This document shows positions 42,855 to 51,793 of a stretch of DNA of 64,000 nucleotides, piece after piece. Within the stretch, counting starts at the first letter, position 1. The number at the start of each line of letters is the position of its first letter. The DNA comes from Methanomassiliicoccales archaeon (GTDB lineage Archaea > Thermoplasmatota > Thermoplasmata > Methanomassiliicoccales > UBA472). Both the position numbers and the translations under genes were made by a program. The notes beneath the pieces were generated by a model. That model made no database searches. It was not told where the DNA came from and was given only the letters and a program-made list of their open reading frames with translations. The stretch lies in the NCBI GenBank assembly GCA_038740345.1, contig JAVYMA010000004.1:21978-85977 (forward strand). The letters are read 5' to 3'.

Positions 42855-43775
42855 TCACATCGAGGCCTGGGCGGCATGGTTTGCGTAACAATATACGCAA
42901 CCGTTCCCGCATGTCCCATATCCGCCTATGTCCTTGCTGAGGAGACAGCCGCATTCCTTCCTCTGGCCCGGATCCTTGCATCCCCAGCTGGCGATGAACT
43001 GGTGAAGCACAGTATCGTGAGGCGCGATCCTTTTCAACCGCTCCCCCTCGACGCAGGCCGCTTTTTCAATGCCGAAGCGTTTCAAGTCCACCTCCTCGGC
43101 ACAGGCTTGTAATCTAAGTTCCCATCTCTCATTGAGGGCCGAGATGCCTTGCGCCAGCTCTATTATCTCATCTTCACTTGGCTCTCTTATTCCTCTTTTC
43201 TCCAGCTTTCTCCTCAGTCTTCTGTATCTCTGGATATCGATGAAGCTGATGGTGAGCGTATCCGTATGATGATGCAGCATTTCTCCCACCTTCGCCACCC
43301 TTTGCAGCAAAGAATCCGCATCCAGCTCCTCGCTGAGCAGGAGAGGGTCGAAGCGCCACAGGACCCTCTCCTTGCCTATCCTCTCCGAGAGCTCTTTGAA
43401 GGTGCGGGCCCTTTGCTTCAAGGGCGGCATCCTCGGCTCATAGCCTAGGCCTTCGTAGTCGTTCACCGTGTACTGGAAATAATAGGATATGCCCATCTCA
43501 TCCAGTTCTTGCAAATGCTGGAGCAGGGGGGAGGCGTCCTTGGTCCAGAACACGATCGCTCGGACCTTGCTGAAAGAGATATAATCCGTCTTGCCGTTGA
43601 AGGGGTTGCGCCACTCCACGTATCCTCTCCTCAACCTCTCCATGAACCAATCCGAATGGCAAGAGGGTATGTCCATAGCGCGGCTGGCTGAGATGATGAG
43701 CGGGGCTATCGCTTCCACTTGCCGGCCATATTCGTCGCTCAACTTTTCCCTGCTCCATCGGTAGCCTCTTGCCAT
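42855..43775 (-). CDS. DUF1848-family protein (C-terminal Cys cluster; function unknown)
   Basis: 306 aa. ISASRAMDIPSCHSDWFMERLRRGYVEWRNPFN and the C-terminal CGCLLSKDIGGYGTCGNGCVYCYANH match my recollection of DUF1848. Confidence 0.7.
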   Translation of the reverse strand: MARGYRWSREKLSDEYGRQVEAIAPLIISASRAMDIPSCHSDWFMERLRRGYVEWRNPFNGKTDYISFSKVRAIVFWTKDASPLLQHLQELDEMGISYYFQYTVNDYEGLGYEPRMPPLKQRARTFKELSERIGKERVLWRFDPLLLSEELDADSLLQRVAKVGEMLHHHTDTLTISFIDIQRYRRLRRKLEKRGIREPSEDEIIELAQGISALNERWELRLQACAEEVDLKRFGIEKAACVEGERLKRIAPHDTVLHQFIASWGCKDPGQRKECGCLLSKDIGGYGTCGNGCVYCYANHAAQASM

Positions 43776-44131: not shown

Positions 44132-47100
44132 ATGGAGGCCAGACAAATAAATATGGCTTTCATCGTGGGGGTATCCATGGGCGAGGAGCGCGTCCGCGTC
44201 GACGTCAACCAGATAGGGGAATACATACAGAGGGGGGCCTGTCCCAGGCGCTTCAAGCTCGACCTCAATTCTCGCGAGGAGGCGATGAAGCTCCCCTTCT
44301 TCGCCAGGACGCTCAACCCCTTGGACCCAGTATTGCAGAGGATGGGGAGGGAGCTGGAGGAGAGATGGGAGCGCTCCCTCCTCGAGGCAGGGATGATTAG
44401 GATCAACGATCTGGGCCATGCCCCTCTAAAAGACCAGATCTCTTGGGAGGAGTTCGTTGAGCTGGTGGAGCAGCATTGCCAAGAGGGAGGGCAGCAGTTC
44501 GGGAGGGAGGTGGCCATCACCTGCCAGAAGGGACGCTTCGAAGTACATGGGAGAATGGACTTCGTGATAGTGCTGTGGAGAGATGGACGACCGTACCTAC
44601 GTATCGTGGAGTGCAAGGCCAGCAGGAAGGACAAGACCTATCATCGCCTGCAGCTGGCGCTCTACCTGCTCATGGTGCGCTCCCTCCTGGAGAGGCGCCC
44701 CCTCCTTGTGGCAGGCAAGGAATTGACTTGCGATAGCGTAGAGGGCGTGGTGGCTAGGATGAGAGAGGCGGGAGGAGGGGTGGTGGAGGACAGGATAATG
44801 GACCTGGAGCCTTTGGACCTCTCCACAGAGATGGAGGATGCGCGCCGCCTTCTCAGCGACGGAGGCATTTTAGAACACATATCAAGCAGCGAGCTGGAAG
44901 AGCTCAGCTATCAGATCAATGCCAAGTGCGATAGCTGCGTGTTCAACGTCTGCTGCCTGCCGGAGAGCGCCAGGAGGAGGTCCATAGAGCTTCTAGGCCT
45001 GGACGTGTCCGTGACGAGCACCTTAAGGGAGAAAGGCATCCGGACCTTGGACGAGCTGGCAGCGCTGAAAGTGGACTCCCCCTTGGCCCATGAGATGCGC
45101 AGGACCCCGGGGTTCTCGCAAAACCTGGAGAACCTCATAGCTCGTGCCAGGGCCCGCCTCTCCACCCTTCCAGGCTCCAAAGAGAGAGCCTTCCAAGTGC
45201 AGAAGTTCCCTCATGCCTCGGAAGGTCAGCTCCCCCCTCATGACATAGAAGGGCGAAGGCTGGTCCGGGTTTACGTGGCCGTGGAATACGACTATATCGA
45301 GGACAGGATAGTGGCCTTGGCTGCACATGTGACCTCCAGCTGCTGGAACATATGCACACCCTTCCGCAGGAGAGCTGATGGCGGATGGGCTCCGCATCCT
45401 AAGGCCATGGAATCACCTCCTCGCACGCAGCAGTCAATGGGAGGGCAGGAGGAGAGGGAGGTTCAGGGTGAGGATGTCATCCGTCTGAAAGAGAAGCCCT
45501 GGTCAGGCAAAAGGGAGGAGGACGAAAGGGCGGAGCGGGAGCTGATGGAGCGCTTCCTCAGCGAGCTTATGATCTCCATATCAAGGGTGGCCGAAACGGA
45601 CAAGGCACCCGTCCATTTTTACTTCTGGTCCCGCTCGGACTTCGATGCCCTCCTAGGTGGATGCGCTCGATGCGGCTCGGACTTGCTCGATTCCCTCACG
45701 CATCTTCTCGGCTGCCGGGAACCGCTAGAGCAGCTGATATATTCATGCTTGGAGGAAGAGGTCCATTCCCGATACGGCACGGGATGGACCGGGAGAGGGC
45801 TGGTGGTGGCCACCTCGGTCAAGTGGTTCGGGCAGGCATATCATTGGACCAGGGAGGTGGAGGGTCGCAGGATCCGGTTGGACGACCTCTTCCGCCAGGA
45901 CCTGTTCGATTTCCGCGGCAGGCTGCGCGTCAGGCCTGATGGCGAATGGGCCAGGGAGGGCGAGCCCTTCGAGGAGCCAGAGTTCGAGATCCGCTCCCGC
46001 TTCCATGACGGTTTGCCAATCCCATATTGGCACGCAGTGTGGGGAACCTTGCCGCCAATAGGACCGGAAATGCGCCGGAATCATAGGGAGGCTCTAGAGG
46101 GCTATTCCCGTGTAAACTCCCCCAAGCTGATCCAAGAATACCTGAGGGCCAGGGTCCACGCCATGCGCTGGCTGGAGGAGAGGATAATTCCCAAGAACAG
46201 GAAGCTGAGGAAGGCCTTTTTGGATTTGAGGAACCTTTCCCGCTTCCGATTGGCAGAGCCTAATAGCATACGCGCCGCCGTGGACTTCCTGCGCCTCGAC
46301 CATCACGTGAGATTGAGCGATTGGCTGGTAAGATGCATGCAGCCAGTGCGAGACAGGGTGGCGAAGGGGGAGACGGTCCCGATAGCCAAAGGCACGATCA
46401 TGGAGGACGGCTCGGACGTCTACATCGAGGCCAAGCTCGACCTGGAGAGGTTCGGCGAGGATGGCGAGGGGTTCTGGGAGAAAAGCTTGATAGAGCAAGA
46501 GTCCTGGGTGCGCCTGACTATATACGATGGTGATGCTTCGAAGGGGCAGTCGCCGCACCAGCTTTTCTCTGAAGGATGCACCTGTAAGGTACAGGGAGTG
46601 GATGCGCGAGAGGGGAAGATCTTCCTCAAGGCCATGCGCTTCGAGCCTGACAGATATCGCCTCTTTAGCAAGATCCCTCGGGATGGTTTCGAGTTCGCTG
46701 TGCTGGACGAGAGCATCTCCGACATGGTGGCCACCAGGGTGGAGGGAAGGTTGTTGAACGAGGCATCCTCTTCTCCTTCTGTCGCGCTGTCATGGTTCGA
46801 TATCCTCAGGCCGTCCGTCCCCCCTCTCCCTTGTCCTCCAGAGGAGGAACTGGAAAAGGATAGAAGAGTGCTTGAGGGCATGATTTTCGAGGGCAAGAGA
46901 TTGGGGAAGGACCAGATAGAGGCCATTATGGAAGGTTTGGTCACGCGTGTGCACTTGCTGCTGGGCCCGCCAGGCACGGGCAAGACCACCACTTTGGCCG
47001 CCGCTACCCTGCTGAGGGCCTCGAAGCTGCCGCCAGGAGAGGTGCTGGCCTTCGCGGCCAGCACGCATGCGGCAGTCGACAGGTTGATGGAGGAGCTGAA

Positions 47101-48925
47101 TAGGCTGCTGCCTTCCTTCCTCGAGGTGTACCAGCGCGCGCACGGCGTTAGGCCTGACTTGGAGATATTGGATTGGGACGAGGCCAAATCAGCGAGAGCC
47201 TCCGCTTCCAGGTTGAACGAGCTGCGCCGGGTCAGGAAAATCATCTTGGGAGGCACGACCAATGAGGTGCTCAAGCTCTGCGGCTATATGTGCCAGCTCC
47301 CCCCCTTCAACTCCAGGGGAGAGGGCTTCACGGTGCGCAGCCTGGTAGTGGATGAGGCCAGCATGATGGTGATGCCGCACTTCCTCGCTTTGGCATCGAT
47401 CCTCAGCGCGGAGGGCTGCGCGATGCTCGCCGGCGACCACAATCAATTGTCCCCCATACTATCCCATCAATGGGAGGAGGAGGACCGCCCATACATCCAA
47501 CTATATCAGCCATACACCAGCGCCTACGACGCCGTGGCCTCTTTGTCCAGGGCAAGGGGCATAGAGCCTTCGATGATAAGACGCTCAGCCCTAGTGCTCA
47601 CCTTTCGGCTGCCATATGAGATAAGGACGCTAATTGATGATATCTATCGCAGGGACGGCGTGGAGCTGGAGGGCGCGAAGGCGATTGAGAGCAGGAGGAT
47701 CGAGAGGGATGATGACGTATTCGGCCTGCTATGGCGGCAGGGAGGCATCTTCCTCATCCTCCACTCGGAGAGTGGCTCGAAGAAGCTCAACAGGTTCGAG
47801 GCCTCTATTATCGAGGAATTGGTCAGAAGAGGTACCAACAGGCCTCCTGGGTCCTTGGCGGTGATGACACCGCATCGGGCTCAGCGCACCCTGCTGCAGT
47901 CCGTCCTGCGGCCTTATCTGACAGAGGGGGATGTGATAGACACGGTGGAGAGGTTGCAGGGGGGAGAGAGGCCTACGGTCATCGTGTCGGGAACGCAAAG
48001 CGATCCCACGGCCATAAGCAACAGCGCGGACTTCATCCTCTACCTCAACCGCACCAATGTCATCTTCTCCCGGGCCAGGGAGAGGCTGATAGTGGTATGC
48101 GCCCGCACGCTGTTGGACAGCGTGCCGGCGGACAAGGAGATGTATGAGAACGCCATGCTGTGGAAGAAGTTGAGAGCGCTCTGCAGCCGAAGACTCCTGT
48201 GGTTCCGATATCGAGGCCACGAGATGGAGGTGCTGCTGCCCGACCTGGATAACATAGAGCTAGTTGGTGCTAATCCCGAATGCGATTCATACCTCCCTAG
48301 CTTCGAACCTAAACCCACCATCACAATGCTGAATCCTGTTAATACTGGGCAAGGGCTTTTAGCCTTGGAGGGCAACACCGAACAAGTCGCCTTAGCAAAC
48401 GCGCCTGAAGCTCTTAGCGAGAAGACCTGTGTAGAAAAGGTCGAAAGGCGCAGGGCGCGCTTCGGTCCCGGACCGCCTCCTATCCCTCGCATAGTGGTGG
48501 ATGGCAGCAACCTCGCTCGCTACGCGGGATATCAGAGCTCGGCCAGCGCCAGGAACCTGATCAAGGCCTATGAGGACCTGATCTCAGAATTCGGCTTCAG
48601 GAGCGTGCATGTGGTGGTGGGCGCGGGCCTGTGGAGGTCCATGCCTAGGGAGGAGTGGGAGCAGATGACCAAGTATTTCCATGAGGAGGCATCGAAGAGA
48701 GGCCGCTCCCCCATACTCCTCCAGGCGCCAGCGGGTGTGAATGATGATGTGTTCATAATAGGATTGGCGCTGAATGACGACTGCTTGATACTGAGTAATG
48801 ACCTCTTCCGCGATCATATACAGAGGCATCCGGAATGGGAGGTGGATATCAACATGAGGTTGGTCAAGTACATGTTCGTGGAGGACAAGCTCAGGATCGA
48901 GGAGTGGCCAGATTATCAAATATGA
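44132..48925 (+). CDS. 1,597-aa multidomain nuclease-helicase-RNase fusion (Cas4-like Fe-S PD-(D/E)xK nuclease, HhH, RNase-H-like region, SF1 Upf1/Dna2-like helicase, Zc3h12a-type NYN RNase)
   Basis: A single uninterrupted ORF at host-like GC; the domain motifs are itemised in the next three features. The start could be 44132, 44153 or 44177. Confidence 0.85.
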   Translation: MEARQINMAFIVGVSMGEERVRVDVNQIGEYIQRGACPRRFKLDLNSREEAMKLPFFARTLNPLDPVLQRMGRELEERWERSLLEAGMIRINDLGHAPLKDQISWEEFVELVEQHCQEGGQQFGREVAITCQKGRFEVHGRMDFVIVLWRDGRPYLRIVECKASRKDKTYHRLQLALYLLMVRSLLERRPLLVAGKELTCDSVEGVVARMREAGGGVVEDRIMDLEPLDLSTEMEDARRLLSDGGILEHISSSELEELSYQINAKCDSCVFNVCCLPESARRRSIELLGLDVSVTSTLREKGIRTLDELAALKVDSPLAHEMRRTPGFSQNLENLIARARARLSTLPGSKERAFQVQKFPHASEGQLPPHDIEGRRLVRVYVAVEYDYIEDRIVALAAHVTSSCWNICTPFRRRADGGWAPHPKAMESPPRTQQSMGGQEEREVQGEDVIRLKEKPWSGKREEDERAERELMERFLSELMISISRVAETDKAPVHFYFWSRSDFDALLGGCARCGSDLLDSLTHLLGCREPLEQLIYSCLEEEVHSRYGTGWTGRGLVVATSVKWFGQAYHWTREVEGRRIRLDDLFRQDLFDFRGRLRVRPDGEWAREGEPFEEPEFEIRSRFHDGLPIPYWHAVWGTLPPIGPEMRRNHREALEGYSRVNSPKLIQEYLRARVHAMRWLEERIIPKNRKLRKAFLDLRNLSRFRLAEPNSIRAAVDFLRLDHHVRLSDWLVRCMQPVRDRVAKGETVPIAKGTIMEDGSDVYIEAKLDLERFGEDGEGFWEKSLIEQESWVRLTIYDGDASKGQSPHQLFSEGCTCKVQGVDAREGKIFLKAMRFEPDRYRLFSKIPRDGFEFAVLDESISDMVATRVEGRLLNEASSSPSVALSWFDILRPSVPPLPCPPEEELEKDRRVLEGMIFEGKRLGKDQIEAIMEGLVTRVHLLLGPPGTGKTTTLAAATLLRASKLPPGEVLAFAASTHAAVDRLMEELNRLLPSFLEVYQRAHGVRPDLEILDWDEAKSARASASRLNELRRVRKIILGGTTNEVLKLCGYMCQLPPFNSRGEGFTVRSLVVDEASMMVMPHFLALASILSAEGCAMLAGDHNQLSPILSHQWEEEDRPYIQLYQPYTSAYDAVASLSRARGIEPSMIRRSALVLTFRLPYEIRTLIDDIYRRDGVELEGAKAIESRRIERDDDVFGLLWRQGGIFLILHSESGSKKLNRFEASIIEELVRRGTNRPPGSLAVMTPHRAQRTLLQSVLRPYLTEGDVIDTVERLQGGERPTVIVSGTQSDPTAISNSADFILYLNRTNVIFSRARERLIVVCARTLLDSVPADKEMYENAMLWKKLRALCSRRLLWFRYRGHEMEVLLPDLDNIELVGANPECDSYLPSFEPKPTITMLNPVNTGQGLLALEGNTEQVALANAPEALSEKTCVEKVERRRARFGPGPPPIPRIVVDGSNLARYAGYQSSASARNLIKAYEDLISEFGFRSVHVVVGAGLWRSMPREEWEQMTKYFHEEASKRGRSPILLQAPAGVNDDVFIIGLALNDDCLILSNDLFRDHIQRHPEWEVDINMRLVKYMFVEDKLRIEEWPDYQI
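44177..44960 (+). other. Domain: Cas4/RecB-like PD-(D/E)xK nuclease with 4-Cys Fe-S cluster motif
   Basis: N-terminal Cys (GACPRRF, TGT at 44240), catalytic-type D (MDFVIV, GAC at 44558), E-x-K (IVECKAS, 44609-44617), QxxxY-like HRLQLALY, and C-x2-C-x5-C (CDSCVFNVCC, 44927-44956). This is the Cas4/AddB/Dna2 arrangement. Confidence 0.75.
46900..48110 (+). other. Domain: superfamily-1 (Upf1/Dna2-like, AAA_11/AAA_12) helicase core
   Basis: Walker A LLLGPPGTGKTT (46964-46987), motif II VVDEASMM (47345-47368), GDHNQLSPI, TVERLQGGERPTVIV and FSRARERLIVV. Confidence 0.8.
48485..48922 (+). other. Domain: Zc3h12a/Regnase-type NYN ribonuclease
   Basis: PRIVVDGSNLA...VNDDVFIIGLALNDDCLILSNDLFRDH...MRLVKYMFVEDKL aligns by eye with the mammalian Regnase-1 NYN core recalled from memory (RPVVIDGSNVA...[26 protein letters not shown]...RLLMYSFVNDKF). 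All the acidic catalytic positions are present. Confidence 0.75.
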
Positions 48926-49377
48926 TTATTTAAAATTAATAAATAAATAAAGTTTCAGAAGTTCGCTTGAAGAACACTCTTTTTATAACAAAATTTAAAT
49001 GTATTCGATTGGTCACGAATATATATTATTTTCATTTATAAATAACGTCCTTCTTATTTATAAGTCACAATCGAAATAAAAAAAAAGGATATGGTAATGA
49101 AAAAGTCTTTCTTTCATCCTTTTTCAGCATTCCCATCTTTTAAGTAATTTTGGGTTTTATTATGATTATTATTATAGAAGATTAATTAGAAAGAATCTAA
49201 TATTGGATTTATTCTCAAAAGTATTGATATTTTAGGGTAAAGAGAGATGGAAAATTGAAAAGATTTCATTAATTTTTTTATATTATAAAATTTGCAATTA
49301 GAAAACTTTACCAATTTATATTTCAAAATCCTATGCGAAAAGCTTAGAATAGAAAATAATTATTAGACACATCCAAA

Positions 49378-51267
49378 ATGAGACTTTATTCAGGAAGCTC
49401 TAATCAGTTCGTAGAAGATACAATACAAAATCAAATAGCAGAAAAAATGAAAAATAGTTATTTTAACTATTTTCGTTATTTTCCAACACCAAGTGAGATT
49501 AGTGCATGGAGAAATTCATTAAGGGCCATGTCTCTGGTTATTTTATCTTCAAAATTAGATGACCATGGAGTAATCCTAGAATATCAATTACCTTTGACAT
49601 CGAAAAGGTTAGATTTTTTAATATGTGGGCTTGATTCTGATTCAAAACCAAATGCTGTGATTGTAGAATTGAAGCAATGGGAAAAATGTGAGATATCTGA
49701 TGGAGAAAATGAAGTCCTTACATTCGTCGGTGGAAATAAAAGAGAGGTACTGCATCCATCAGCGCAAGTAGGTCAATATTCATTATACCTTCAAGATACC
49801 CATACTGCATTTTATGAAAATCCAACTCCGATAAATCTGAGCGCCTGTTCTTACCTTCATAATTACAGGGCAATTTCAAATGATCCTTTATTTAATAAAA
49901 AATTTTGCAATTTATTGGAAAAATATCCAATATTCACTGAAGATGATGTAAACAAATTAAAGGAATACTTAATTCCAAGATTAGAAAAAGGAGAAGGTTT
50001 GCCTGTTCTCGCTAGGATAGAAAATAGTAAATATCGTCCAAATAAAAAATTAATGGATCATGTTGGCAATCTAATCAAAGGCAAGCCAGAATATATATTG
50101 TTAGATGAACAAAAAATTGTATATGATAAAGTTCTTGCAGTCGCGAAAGAGGGTTTTCATCAATCGAGAAAAATTGTAATTATTGTAAAGGGAGGTCCTG
50201 GTACTGGAAAATCTGTTATTGCAATTAATCTGATGGCAGATTTGTTATTAAAAGGCTATAATGCACACTATGCAACAGGATCCAGAGCTTTTACAGAGAC
50301 TTTAAGGAAAATTATAGGAAAAAGAGGAAGTGTTCAATTCAGATTTTTCAATAGCTATACACAATCGGAACCGAACTCAGTAGATATTCTAATCTGCGAC
50401 GAAGCGCATCGGATAAGGAAAACAAGCAATAATTGGAGAACGCCAACATATAATAAGAGCAATATTCCGCAAATTGATGAATTATTGACAGTCGCAAAAG
50501 TTGTTGTGTTTTTTATTGATGATGCACAGGTTGTTCGACCAGATGAAGTTGGTTCCGTGGATTACATTAAAAATGCAGCCAATCGATTTAATTGTCAAAT
50601 TTTTGAATATGAACTAGAAGCTCAATTTCGTTGTGCTGGGTCAGATGCATTTGTTAATTGGGTAAACAATACTCTAGCAATAAAAAGAACTGCGAATGTT
50701 ATCTGGGAAGGGGATGAAGGATTTGACTTTAGAATCGTTGAATCACCTCAAAAGCTAGAAACTATGATTAGGGAGAAGGTATCCCAAGGTTACTCAGGAA
50801 GGATAGTTGCTGGATTTTGTTGGCCCTGGTCTTATCCGAAAGAGGATGGAACACTGGTTGACGATGTTAAGATAGGTGATTATTGCCGTCCTTGGGATGC
50901 TAGACCTGACGCAAAGAAATTATCTAAGGATATCCCCCCTGCTTCTTTATGGGCATACGATCCCAATGGGATAAATCAGATTGGTTGCGTATATACAGCC
51001 CAGGGGTTTGAATTCGATTATATAGGGGTTATTTTTGGATTAGATTTGAGATATGATTTCTCGGAGCAGAGATGGAAAGGCTACAGAGAATTTTCTTGTG
51101 ACAATGTTGTTAAACGTTCAAAAGAGAAATTCACTGATCTTGTAAAAAATACGTATAGGGTTTTATTAACACGTGGTCTAAAAGGATGCTATATATATTT
51201 TATGGATAAGCAAACAGAAAACTTTTTCAAATCAAGAATAGAAATTGAAAAGGTAGTTAACTCTTGA
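49378..51267 (+). CDS. DUF2075-family (Schlafen group-3 helicase-like) ATPase with N-terminal D...ExK nuclease-like motif
   Basis: 629 aa. RLDFLICG (D at 49612) and VIVELKQW (E-x-K at 49666-49674). Walker A GGPGTGKS (50191-50214), ICDEAHR (50392-50412), then QFRCAGS...YTAQGFEFDYIGVIFG...YRVLLTRGLKGCYIYF, typical of DUF2075. Confidence 0.8.
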   Translation: MRLYSGSSNQFVEDTIQNQIAEKMKNSYFNYFRYFPTPSEISAWRNSLRAMSLVILSSKLDDHGVILEYQLPLTSKRLDFLICGLDSDSKPNAVIVELKQWEKCEISDGENEVLTFVGGNKREVLHPSAQVGQYSLYLQDTHTAFYENPTPINLSACSYLHNYRAISNDPLFNKKFCNLLEKYPIFTEDDVNKLKEYLIPRLEKGEGLPVLARIENSKYRPNKKLMDHVGNLIKGKPEYILLDEQKIVYDKVLAVAKEGFHQSRKIVIIVKGGPGTGKSVIAINLMADLLLKGYNAHYATGSRAFTETLRKIIGKRGSVQFRFFNSYTQSEPNSVDILICDEAHRIRKTSNNWRTPTYNKSNIPQIDELLTVAKVVVFFIDDAQVVRPDEVGSVDYIKNAANRFNCQIFEYELEAQFRCAGSDAFVNWVNNTLAIKRTANVIWEGDEGFDFRIVESPQKLETMIREKVSQGYSGRIVAGFCWPWSYPKEDGTLVDDVKIGDYCRPWDARPDAKKLSKDIPPASLWAYDPNGINQIGCVYTAQGFEFDYIGVIFGLDLRYDFSEQRWKGYREFSCDNVVKRSKEKFTDLVKNTYRVLLTRGLKGCYIYFMDKQTENFFKSRIEIEKVVNS

Positions 51268-51637
51268 GATTATTTTTAAATTCATTATATTTTTTATTAC
51301 TACCTTTCGCTAATTGTATTGGATATCTTTCATCATTTAGCTTCAATTTCTTTTCTAGTTCATCGGATAAATCAAAATTATATCTATCCGAAAAACGTAA
51401 CAGAAAATAGAGCACATCTCCCAATTCCTCTCCCATTTTTTTTCGATAATAGCTGTTAGTCATCATATCCATAATTTCATTCTCTTGTTTAAATCTAAAA
51501 ATTTCTAAAAATTCAGATGCTTCTGTTATTATCCCTATTGCTAAATCTTTAGGATTGTGAAATTCATCCCAACCTCTATCATCACAAAATTTTGCTACCT
51601 TTTTCTTAGCTGTCTCAAATGTTGTCTCTGAGTCCAT
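51257..51637 (-). CDS. MazG/DCTPP1-like all-alpha nucleoside-triphosphate pyrophosphohydrolase
   Basis: About 126 aa. FCDDRGWDEFHNPKDLAIGIITEASEFLEIFRFK...GEELGDVLYFLLRFSDRYNFDL...LNDERYP...KGSNKKY fits the MazG-type NTP-PPase pattern with its two acidic metal-binding helices. Its 3' end overlaps the DUF2075 gene by 11 nt. Confidence 0.8.
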   Translation of the reverse strand: MDSETTFETAKKKVAKFCDDRGWDEFHNPKDLAIGIITEASEFLEIFRFKQENEIMDMMTNSYYRKKMGEELGDVLYFLLRFSDRYNFDLSDELEKKLKLNDERYPIQLAKGSNKKYNEFKNNLKS

Positions 51638-51793
51638 CAAAGTGATAAATATGTTTTAGATTAAAATTTGTATCATCAAAAAGTTCTATCATCTTTTAAT
51701 TAATTGATAAATTATAACAATATTAATTAATTATTATATTATTTTTTGTTTAAATTTGCAATATTTATATTTATGCACATTAATCAGAACTAG

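Follow-up and report, generated by a model that had tools for sequence, protein, structure and literature searches.

Does an archaeal gene join on a single polypeptide an Upf1-like helicase and a Regnase-type endoribonuclease, two activities that eukaryotes keep on separate proteins, and how is such a protein best explained? The question is raised by a locus in a 64,000-nucleotide stretch of Methanomassiliicoccales archaeon DNA (contig JAVYMA010000004.1 of assembly GCA_038740345.1, positions 21,978 to 85,977; hereafter the window, in whose numbering coordinates are given). An earlier note on this stretch, made from the letters alone, had proposed that a Zc3h12a-type NYN ribonuclease (RNase) is covalently tethered there to an Upf1-like helicase, as an ancestral or convergent helicase-assisted endoribonuclease. 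The biology behind that proposal is sound, since UPF1 does unwind stem-loops and thereby licenses Regnase-1 (PMC7145602). Our analyses place the NYN domain at the C-terminus of a 1597-amino-acid (aa) protein whose three predicted catalytic modules, a Cas4-like nuclease, a superfamily 1B (SF1B) helicase motor and the NYN domain itself, all carry intact motifs on one chain. On the basis of domain content and a few gene neighbourhoods we lean, somewhat beyond an even balance, towards a nuclease-helicase of defence type that acts on its own and acquired an RNase effector, and the likeness to the UPF1/Regnase-1 partnership is best read as functional convergence, not descent.

Architecture of the nuclease-helicase-NYN protein

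The gene occupies positions 44132..48925 of the forward strand as one uninterrupted open reading frame (ORF) of 1597 aa, the last 146 of which are encoded by positions 48485-48922. An identical deposited protein (P0001, 100% identity; NCBI label 'MAG: AAA family ATPase [Methanomassiliicoccales archaeon]'), for which NCBI places the start at M8 (1590 aa), stems from a Methanomassiliicoccales metagenome-assembled genome (MAG), and the host is therefore an archaeon, as had been supposed. From N- to C-terminus, the multidomain product comprises a Cas4-like iron-sulfur (Fe-S) PD-(D/E)XK nuclease, a central region of ~390 aa, a barrel/stalk, an SF1B helicase, a disordered linker and the NYN domain.

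The predicted Zc3h12a-type NYN (PIN-like) endoribonuclease domain (48485..48922, forward strand; aa 1452-1597) is identified by PF11977, by PDB matches and by an AlphaFold2 (AF2) model. Its 146 aa match the Pfam family PF11977 (RNase_Zc3h12a) with an E-value of 7.4e-17 and 61.9 bits over profile positions 4-139 of 154, the gathering cut-off being 23 bits. The sole other PIN-like match is PRORP (24.6 bits, under its cut-off of 39.1), and the Pfam scan of the domain gave zero matches to PF01936, YacP and PIN, so that the best match is the specific family and not a generic PIN/NYN one. All four motifs on which the earlier note had relied are present in the window protein: IVVDGSN (aa 1454-1460), VNDDVF (aa 1536-1541), LSNDLFRD (aa 1554-1561) and RLVKYMFVEDKL (aa 1576-1587). 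A phmmer search of PDB sequences returned ZC3H12C (7ndi, 1.9e-11), ZC3H12B (2.2e-10), ZC3H12A (3v32, 1.8e-9) and KHNYN (8.8e-8). In the ZC3H12C alignment, D1457 and N1460 fall on DGSN, D1538 and D1539 on DD, and D1557 and D1561 on SNDxxRD, and the alignment of the catalytic Asp positions expected by the note thus holds for all five Asp and for the Asn. These six are the predicted catalytic residues; we take N144 of ZC3H12A to be an active-site residue, and we assume that numbering can be transferred from ZC3H12C to ZC3H12A. The catalytic residues of human ZC3H12A in the DGSN, DD and SNDxxRD motifs are D141, D225, D226, D244 and D248 (PMC5499597). RNA is the likely substrate of the NYN domain, because human MCPIP1 is an RNase with marginal DNA activity only (PMC5943514).

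The AF2 model of the NYN domain alternates strands and helices with a predicted local distance difference test (pLDDT) score of about 90-97; the Foldseek list for the two-domain model (helicase plus NYN) was filled with helicase matches. No CCCH zinc finger follows the NYN domain, the chain stopping 9-10 residues past it without a Cys/His motif, and a regular-expression scan for such a finger across the clade of fused homologs described below found none. The guanine plus cytosine (G+C) content does not differ between the NYN-coding stretch (0.52-0.60) and the remainder of the gene, and the reading frame runs from the helicase into the domain with zero stops and zero frameshifts. In view of the profile and PDB matches, the intact frame and the native G+C, the NYN match lies far beyond chance and is no assembly or frame artefact. 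A recent or frameshifted fusion was also considered, and is ruled out by the unbroken ORF, the native composition and the retention of the fusion in relatives.

The SF1B (Upf1-like/Dna2-like) helicase core to which the domain is covalently joined (46901..48151, forward strand; aa ~924-1340) is identified by Pfam, PDB sequence and Foldseek matches. It carries a Walker A motif GPPGTGKT (945-952), DEAS (1074-1077), GDHNQLSP (1101-1108), QGGE (1276-1279) and FSRAR (1312-1316), and these SF1 motor motifs are invariant in the homolog alignments. Pfam assigns AAA_12 (1.6e-13), AAA_19 (5.6e-12), AAA_30 (1e-11) and AAA_11 (1.3e-10). Among PDB sequences the best match is mouse DNA2 (5e-14), followed by UPF1 (4e-10) and IGHMBP2 (4e-9); by fold, Foldseek ranks UPF1 first (1.1e-18), practically tied with Sen1 (4e-17), IGHMBP2 (4e-17), DNA2 (5e-17) and ZNFX1 (1e-16), with template modelling (TM) scores of 0.39-0.46 that are normalised to the 697-aa query and correspond to about 500 aligned columns. 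The AAA_11/AAA_12 matches and the top Foldseek rank of UPF1 bear out the proposed tether to an Upf1-like helicase, and 'Upf1-like' is, on these matches of sequence and fold, right as a family label. It is wrong as a statement of orthology: a special closeness to UPF1 is not supported, DNA2 being best by sequence and Sen1, IGHMBP2 and DNA2 near-tied by fold. The NCBIfam model NF040671 ('PLuB system helicase-like protein') also matches aa 924-1337, at 8e-25 and far under its cut-off of 999; a literature search found no paper on a 'PLuB system'.

At the N-terminus lies a Cas4/RecB-like PD-(D/E)XK nuclease with a four-Cys motif of Fe-S type (44192..44974, forward strand; aa ~21-281). Such a four-Cys pattern is known from the Fe-S nucleases Cas4, AddB and Dna2. 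The key residues (D143, E160-x-K162, Q174...Y178, C37, C266, C269 and C275) are invariant in 14-39 homologs. Pfam gives PDDEXK_1 (3.6e-11) and a weak Cas_Cas4 match, PADLOC a Cas4 profile match (1.8e-8), and the best Foldseek match in the PDB is Cas4 SSO0001 (4ic1, 5.7e-4), followed by Exo5 and the AddB nuclease. The description of a helicase-RNase protein was therefore right in both its parts and incomplete as a whole: the Cas4-like Fe-S nuclease and about 640 further residues had been missed, and with them the protein becomes Dna2-like or defence-like, not a simple helicase-RNase.

Between nuclease and motor, a central conserved region of ~390 aa with a mixed beta-alpha core (45197..46366, forward strand; aa ~356-745) is covered by a confident AF2 model (mean pLDDT 85.9; predicted TM score, pTM, 0.83). 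No Pfam family and no significant Foldseek PDB match was found for aa ~356-745; its sole link is a weak, partial match to TIGR03491, the TM0106 family of RecB-like nucleases (1.6e-4). Its invariant residues include D387, R392, H399, D464, E468, H495 and W552, and its beta-beta-beta-alpha-beta-alpha pattern might be RNase H-like. A predicted beta-barrel with a helical stalk follows (46373..46879, forward strand; aa ~748-916), delimited by AF2 secondary structure and by local Foldseek matches of about 200 aa to Sen1, SETX and Upf1; on the model, it would be the accessory module typical of Upf1-like SF1B helicases, preceding the motor. Beyond the motor, a short beta element leads into a flexible linker of about 55 residues (48311..48484, forward strand; aa ~1394-1451), delimited by AF2 and homolog alignments. 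The pLDDT falls below 50 at aa 1394-1433 (model residues 494-533), which indicates disorder, and the linker is poorly conserved, with a length of 22-66 aa among fused relatives and a conserved GPPP(I/R) just ahead of the first NYN strand.

Distribution of the fusion and relatives of the NYN domain

Whether the fusion recurs in relatives had been set beforehand as a test, and it was found in 8 further 90%-identity clusters. PF11977 is present in nine of the 120 best full-length homologs (P0001 and P0003-P0010; 1530-1590 aa). The fused homologs align with 98-100% of the window protein at 42-49% identity, and the named ones all belong to Methanomassiliicoccales. Two further fused cases came from a one-genome-per-species scan: L011 and L013, the latter a fragment, each carrying the label 'Methanobacteriota archaeon'. 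Eight of the nine fused homologs preserve the catalytic D, N, DD, D and D, and P0006 shows DGND where others have DGSN. The remaining homologs, without NYN, measure about 1,320-1,450 aa and end about 20-40 residues past the motor; they occur in Rhizobium, Bradyrhizobium, Pseudomonas, Mycobacterium, Microcoleus, haloarchaea and other Methanomassiliicoccales. This core family, named by NCBI 'bifunctional RecB family nuclease/DEAD/DEAH box helicase' (about 1,360-1,400 aa; the roughly 1,370-aa family below), is widespread yet patchy across bacteria and archaea. Up to residue ~1,390 the window protein is itself a full-length member of it (40-56% identity over 84-85% of the query), to which the window clade adds the linker and the NYN domain.

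The history of this addition was examined with a neighbour-joining (NJ) tree of 891 core columns and 100 bootstraps, a distance tree on few taxa and hence rough. In this tree, every NYN-bearing protein together with P0002 forms one clade (99% bootstrap), with the NYN-less P0011 and P0076 as its sister group. P0002 is itself NYN-less, 56% identical to the window protein and its sister at 99%; its gene is complete, a convergent gene starts 4 nt later, and no NYN remnant was found downstream of it. The simplest history is one gain of NYN at the base of the Methanomassiliicoccales clade and one later loss in P0002. The Cas4 and helicase motifs are likewise retained in the fused clade, and NYN is therefore an addition, not a replacement. 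Because NYN is a late addition confined to one clade of a normally NYN-less family, the 'ancestral' option of the earlier proposal is unlikely, and the likeness is better described as convergent or analogous.

A search of 1.84 billion representative proteins with a profile built from the fused NYN domains gave 1,112 matches at E≤1e-3 and just 21 at E≤1e-30. The closest matches are the fused helicases, small proteins (165-380 aa) and a family of ~900-1,010 aa that bears NYN at the C-terminus without any other Pfam domain. In all loci examined, an AAA_11/AAA_12 helicase gene (1,280-1,340 aa) lies upstream of this last family's gene, and the two overlap at the stop codon of the former. The pair belongs to a five-gene operon encoding the helicase, the NYN protein (930-980 aa), a ~290-aa unknown protein, a ~610-aa AAA_2/AAA_5 ATPase and a ~200-aa Fer4_12 radical-SAM-like protein. 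This operon was found at six loci from five sources, in archaea and a spirochaete: L016:3664-13780 (Methanocella sp. MCL-LM), L014:1757-11895 (Spirochaetaceae bacterium), L006:297-10352 (of which L007 is a near-duplicate contig), L008:670-10780 and L012:5167-13799 (Methanocorpusculum MAG chromosome OY782579.1). The Methanocella operon comes directly after BREX pglZ and brxL, and its helicase matches the Mokosh MkoA profile with an E-value of 2e-105. The AAA_2/AAA_5 ATPase is PDC-M37B/DolB-like, and three of the five operon proteins are without a PADLOC model. From its sequence content, the operon is a candidate new Mokosh-like system. In the Methanocorpusculum copy, the helicase, NYN, third and AAA genes are each broken into two to four consecutive ORFs, through either pseudogene decay or assembly frameshift errors.

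The operon helicase and the window helicase are distantly related SF1B members (24% identity, E 2e-6). An Upf1-like helicase and a Zc3h12a-type NYN thus recur both as a fusion and as overlapping genes, which constitutes a Rosetta-stone argument for a functional partnership.

Among other relatives of the domain, two small proteins likewise stand in defence-type surroundings. P0122 (265 aa; L077:6618-7415) is a fusion of a ScoMcrA_N-like part and NYN, encoded beside an SRA_ScoMcrA protein and an SF2 helicase, and P0331, a small NYN relative, lies near DpnII/MboI, AbiEii and Nmad3 genes. In the same NYN sub-clade, P0211 (401 aa, possibly a fragment) combines a Lon_C protease, NYN and a C2H2 finger. 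Two more distant members from Promethearchaeota (Asgard) MAGs, the 'NYN domain-containing' proteins P0272 (1615 aa; L010:607-8447) and P0228 (1013 aa; L009:7001-10042), carry PF11977 at the C-terminus and no other Pfam domain, the gene of the former coming directly after NurA and HerA (DUF87). In a rough NJ tree of the NYN domains, ten of twelve fused domains are monophyletic (72%), with the NYN domains of the small proteins and of the operon as closest outgroups; next to this ten-member group come the window domain and P0121, a fragment 76% identical to it. The Asgard proteins form a separate clade with 100% support, and the only eukaryotic sequence, the N4BP1-like P0208, falls apart from the fused clade, a single sequence being insufficient for statements on eukaryotic origins.

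Archaea were already known to encode Zc3h12a-like domains, since Matelska et al. counted prokaryotic members of PF11977 (154 bacterial and 23 archaeal), with function 'unknown in bacteria'. HEC-09, a candidate defence gene with a MARF1-like NYN, gave no defence in tests. In the literature searched, we found no description of this NYN-helicase fusion, of the Cas4-helicase family as a functional entity, or of the five-gene MkoA-like/NYN operon.

Known systems, gene neighbourhoods and rival explanations

Three known systems invite comparison. The Regnase-1/UPF1 pair and the Tetrahymena pair Smg6L/Upf1a, in which a Zc3h12a-like NYN protein interacts with Upf1a (PMC5499736), share with the window protein a PF11977 nuclease with the same Asp/Asn set, an SF1B Upf1-like helicase partner and the principle of a motor exposing substrate for a PIN-like endonuclease. 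They differ in being two separate eukaryotic proteins, as against one archaeal polypeptide. Relative to Regnase-1/UPF1, moreover, the window protein is without CCCH finger and CH domain, possesses an extra Cas4-like nuclease and the ~390-aa region, acquired its NYN late in one archaeal order, and has a motor as near to DNA2 as to UPF1. As the CCCH finger and the CH domain are both missing, neither partner is orthologous to Regnase-1 or UPF1. UPF1 orthology was rejected on the N-terminus as well, a Cas4-like nuclease where a CH domain is absent, and on the better sequence match to DNA2 (5e-14 vs 4e-10); membership of the Regnase (ZC3H12A-D) subfamily was rejected for want of a CCCH finger C-terminal to NYN.

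Mokosh couples an Upf1-like helicase to a phospholipase D (PLD) nuclease, and both activities are required for defence (bioRxiv 10.1101/2022.05.11.491447). Both types (type I, MkoA+MkoB; type II, the single protein MkoC; Millman et al. 2022) share with the window protein an Upf1-like (COG1112) helicase and a nuclease effector. In type II the helicase likewise lies N-terminal to a C-terminal nuclease, and the closest relatives of the window NYN are encoded right after the helicase that matches MkoA at 2e-105. Unlike Mokosh, the window protein has an NYN RNase rather than PLD as effector and an additional N-terminal Cas4-like nuclease. Membership of Mokosh itself was rejected, given that the Pfam and PADLOC scans found no PLD domain and that the profile match is just partial. 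With Dna2 (and Cas4, AddB and Exo5), finally, the window protein shares a four-Cys PD-(D/E)XK nuclease, N-terminal to an SF1B motor as in Dna2, and a barrel/stalk ahead of that motor, whose best sequence match in the PDB is DNA2. It differs from Dna2 in the ~390 extra residues between nuclease and barrel and in the C-terminal NYN RNase; and, where a replication or repair gene would be conserved, its family is patchily distributed and linked to defence islands.

That link comes from the gene neighbourhoods. All four NYN-less core members sampled lie among defence or mobile-element genes: on a Haladaptatus plasmid with a SacI-family restriction endonuclease and Dcm methyltransferase, two integrases and a DUF262 protein; on a Halorubrum plasmid with a 1,561-aa HNH protein and a cytosine methyltransferase; in Afipia broomeae with a C5 methyltransferase, an SMC-like ATPase and a resolvase; and in Natronorubrum with McrB/McrC, a methyltransferase with SacI and a second McrB-like pair. 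In three of these four contexts (L004, L075 and L076) the Cas4-helicase gene directly adjoins one for a C5 DNA cytosine methyltransferase, accompanied in two by a SacI-family endonuclease, and in Afipia the methyltransferase gene convergently overlaps the 3' end of the helicase gene. This adjacency could be chance nearness to restriction-modification systems, or the methyltransferase could be a functional partner.

Immediately downstream of the gene in the window lies a low-G+C island (48930-51790; 2.9 kb; G+C 0.21-0.44 vs about 0.58 in the flanks). It encodes a Schlafen-group-3/DUF2075 helicase of 629 aa (49378-51267, forward strand; PF09848 8e-88; PADLOC PDC-S41 5e-19, with AbiO and Nhi near 1e-12) and, convergent with it, a MazG-like gene of 127 aa (51257-51640, reverse strand). 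The island has the look of a defence-type cassette gained by horizontal transfer. When att-like direct repeats were sought around it (48.6-52.1 kb), AT-rich chance matches alone came up, and a sigma-70 promoter/terminator scan gave counts at shuffle expectation, the sigma-70 model being uninformative for an archaeon. The divergent upstream neighbour is a DUF1848 protein (42855-43775, reverse strand; PF08902 6e-90), which is probably unrelated, as it was not found beside the homologs examined.

If the protein is indeed a defence-type nuclease-helicase, its motor would load on nucleic acid of an invading virus or plasmid, at a single-stranded end or on an intermediate, and translocate along it. 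SF1B helicases translocate 5'-3'. The Cas4-like nuclease would cut the DNA strand tracked or displaced by the motor, as in Dna2 and AddAB, and the tethered NYN domain would cut RNA that the motor exposes or unwinds, whether transcripts, R-loop RNA or structured RNA. This last step would be the in-cis equivalent of UPF1 acting in trans for Regnase-1, and would follow the same logic as Mokosh.

Several observations weigh against this interpretation. The context evidence comes from about a dozen loci, a small sample and not an enrichment statistic. The three NYN-bearing contexts (window, P0003 and P0006) are otherwise made up of housekeeping genes, and no conserved partner gene was found in the P0003 and P0006 neighbourhoods; surroundings of this kind fit a single-gene system and are equally expected of a repair enzyme. 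PADLOC makes no system-level call and returns partial, helicase-level matches to MkoA (1.3e-27; best stretch aa 1213-1329), MkoC (7e-13) and DpdJ (7e-20). The motor matches DNA2 and UPF1 about equally, its sequence giving no RNA-versus-DNA specificity, and the AF2 model, with its disordered linker and a pTM of 0.67, does not reliably position NYN with respect to the helicase exit. Lastly, EG replaces the catalytic DD in one fused homolog, P0004; this change and the DGND of P0006 may, judging from the alignments, reflect inactivated or altered active sites in single lineages.

Some of these points favour a genome-maintenance enzyme, in which Dna2/AddAB-like end resection or flap processing would be combined with removal by NYN of R-loop, primer or RNA:DNA-hybrid RNA. 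An Fe-S PD-(D/E)XK nuclease ahead of an SF1B motor is the Dna2 layout, the motor has its best PDB sequence match in DNA2 (5e-14), the nuclease resembles Cas4, Exo5 and AddB, and the NYN-bearing genes sit among housekeeping genes. We nevertheless hold this role to be unlikely. The family is patchily distributed and members from distant phyla share about 40-45% identity, which suggests horizontal transfer and not a conserved repair function; the sampled NYN-less members have restriction-modification, McrBC and integrase genes as neighbours, and two are plasmid-borne; the ~390-aa central region is without a Dna2 counterpart; and the closest NYN relatives stand in defence contexts. The same late arrival of NYN, limited to one clade of an otherwise NYN-less family, speaks against cellular helicase-assisted mRNA decay or RNA surveillance, that is, an archaeal in-cis counterpart or ancestor of UPF1/Regnase-1, the reading closest to the earlier note. 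The full catalytic set of the Zc3h12a-type NYN, an Upf1-like motor with UPF1 at the top of the Foldseek matches, the licensing of Regnase-1 by UPF1 and the Smg6L-Upf1a interaction would all agree with it. Yet the same protein carries an intact DNA-type Cas4-like nuclease, and neither a CH domain, a CCCH finger nor any recognisable RNA-binding module was found in the Pfam scan or the sequence. Among named matches, furthermore, the fusion is confined to Methanomassiliicoccales, a lineage that is not on the path to eukaryotes, and the one eukaryotic NYN sequence stands apart from the fused clade in what is a crude NJ tree. Taken together, we consider RNA decay distinctly unlikely.

There is finally the possibility that NYN is an inert or accidental appendage, either a recent non-functional fusion or a non-catalytic nucleic-acid-binding module. 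The absence of NYN from the closest relative, P0002, and the lost DD pair of P0004 are what such a view would predict. It is made highly improbable by the persistence of the fusion across a clade that has diverged to 42-49% identity, by the conservation of the catalytic set in all fused homologs but one of nine, by a domain composition native to the gene and by a fold that AF2 predicts confidently.

A possible helicase-NYN module in prokaryotic immunity

A broader proposal goes beyond the window protein: the pairing of an SF1B (Upf1-like) helicase with a Zc3h12a-type NYN may represent a prokaryotic, largely archaeal immune module, and the evolutionary source of the eukaryotic UPF1-Regnase-1/Smg6L/KHNYN/N4BP1 partnerships. 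It would be exemplified by the fusion, by the five-gene MkoA-like operon and by the Asgard NYN proteins beside NurA/HerA. Drawn from sequence comparisons, this proposal is bold and, in our estimate, improbable. Regnase-1, KHNYN and N4BP1 are innate-immune effectors, and at least Regnase-1 and the ciliate Smg6L work with UPF1; Mokosh, for its part, has been linked to MOV10L1-PLD6. If the proposal were true, the origin of a eukaryotic antiviral and RNA-decay pairing would parallel that proposed link, and a second immune module of this kind shared between prokaryotes and eukaryotes would be added, after Mokosh and the PIWI-interacting RNA (piRNA) pathway.

The window protein would serve as a compact single-chain system for studying the licensing of a PIN-like RNase by a motor, and the analysis flags two candidate defence families, the Cas4-helicase family of roughly 1,370 aa and the five-gene helicase-NYN operon.

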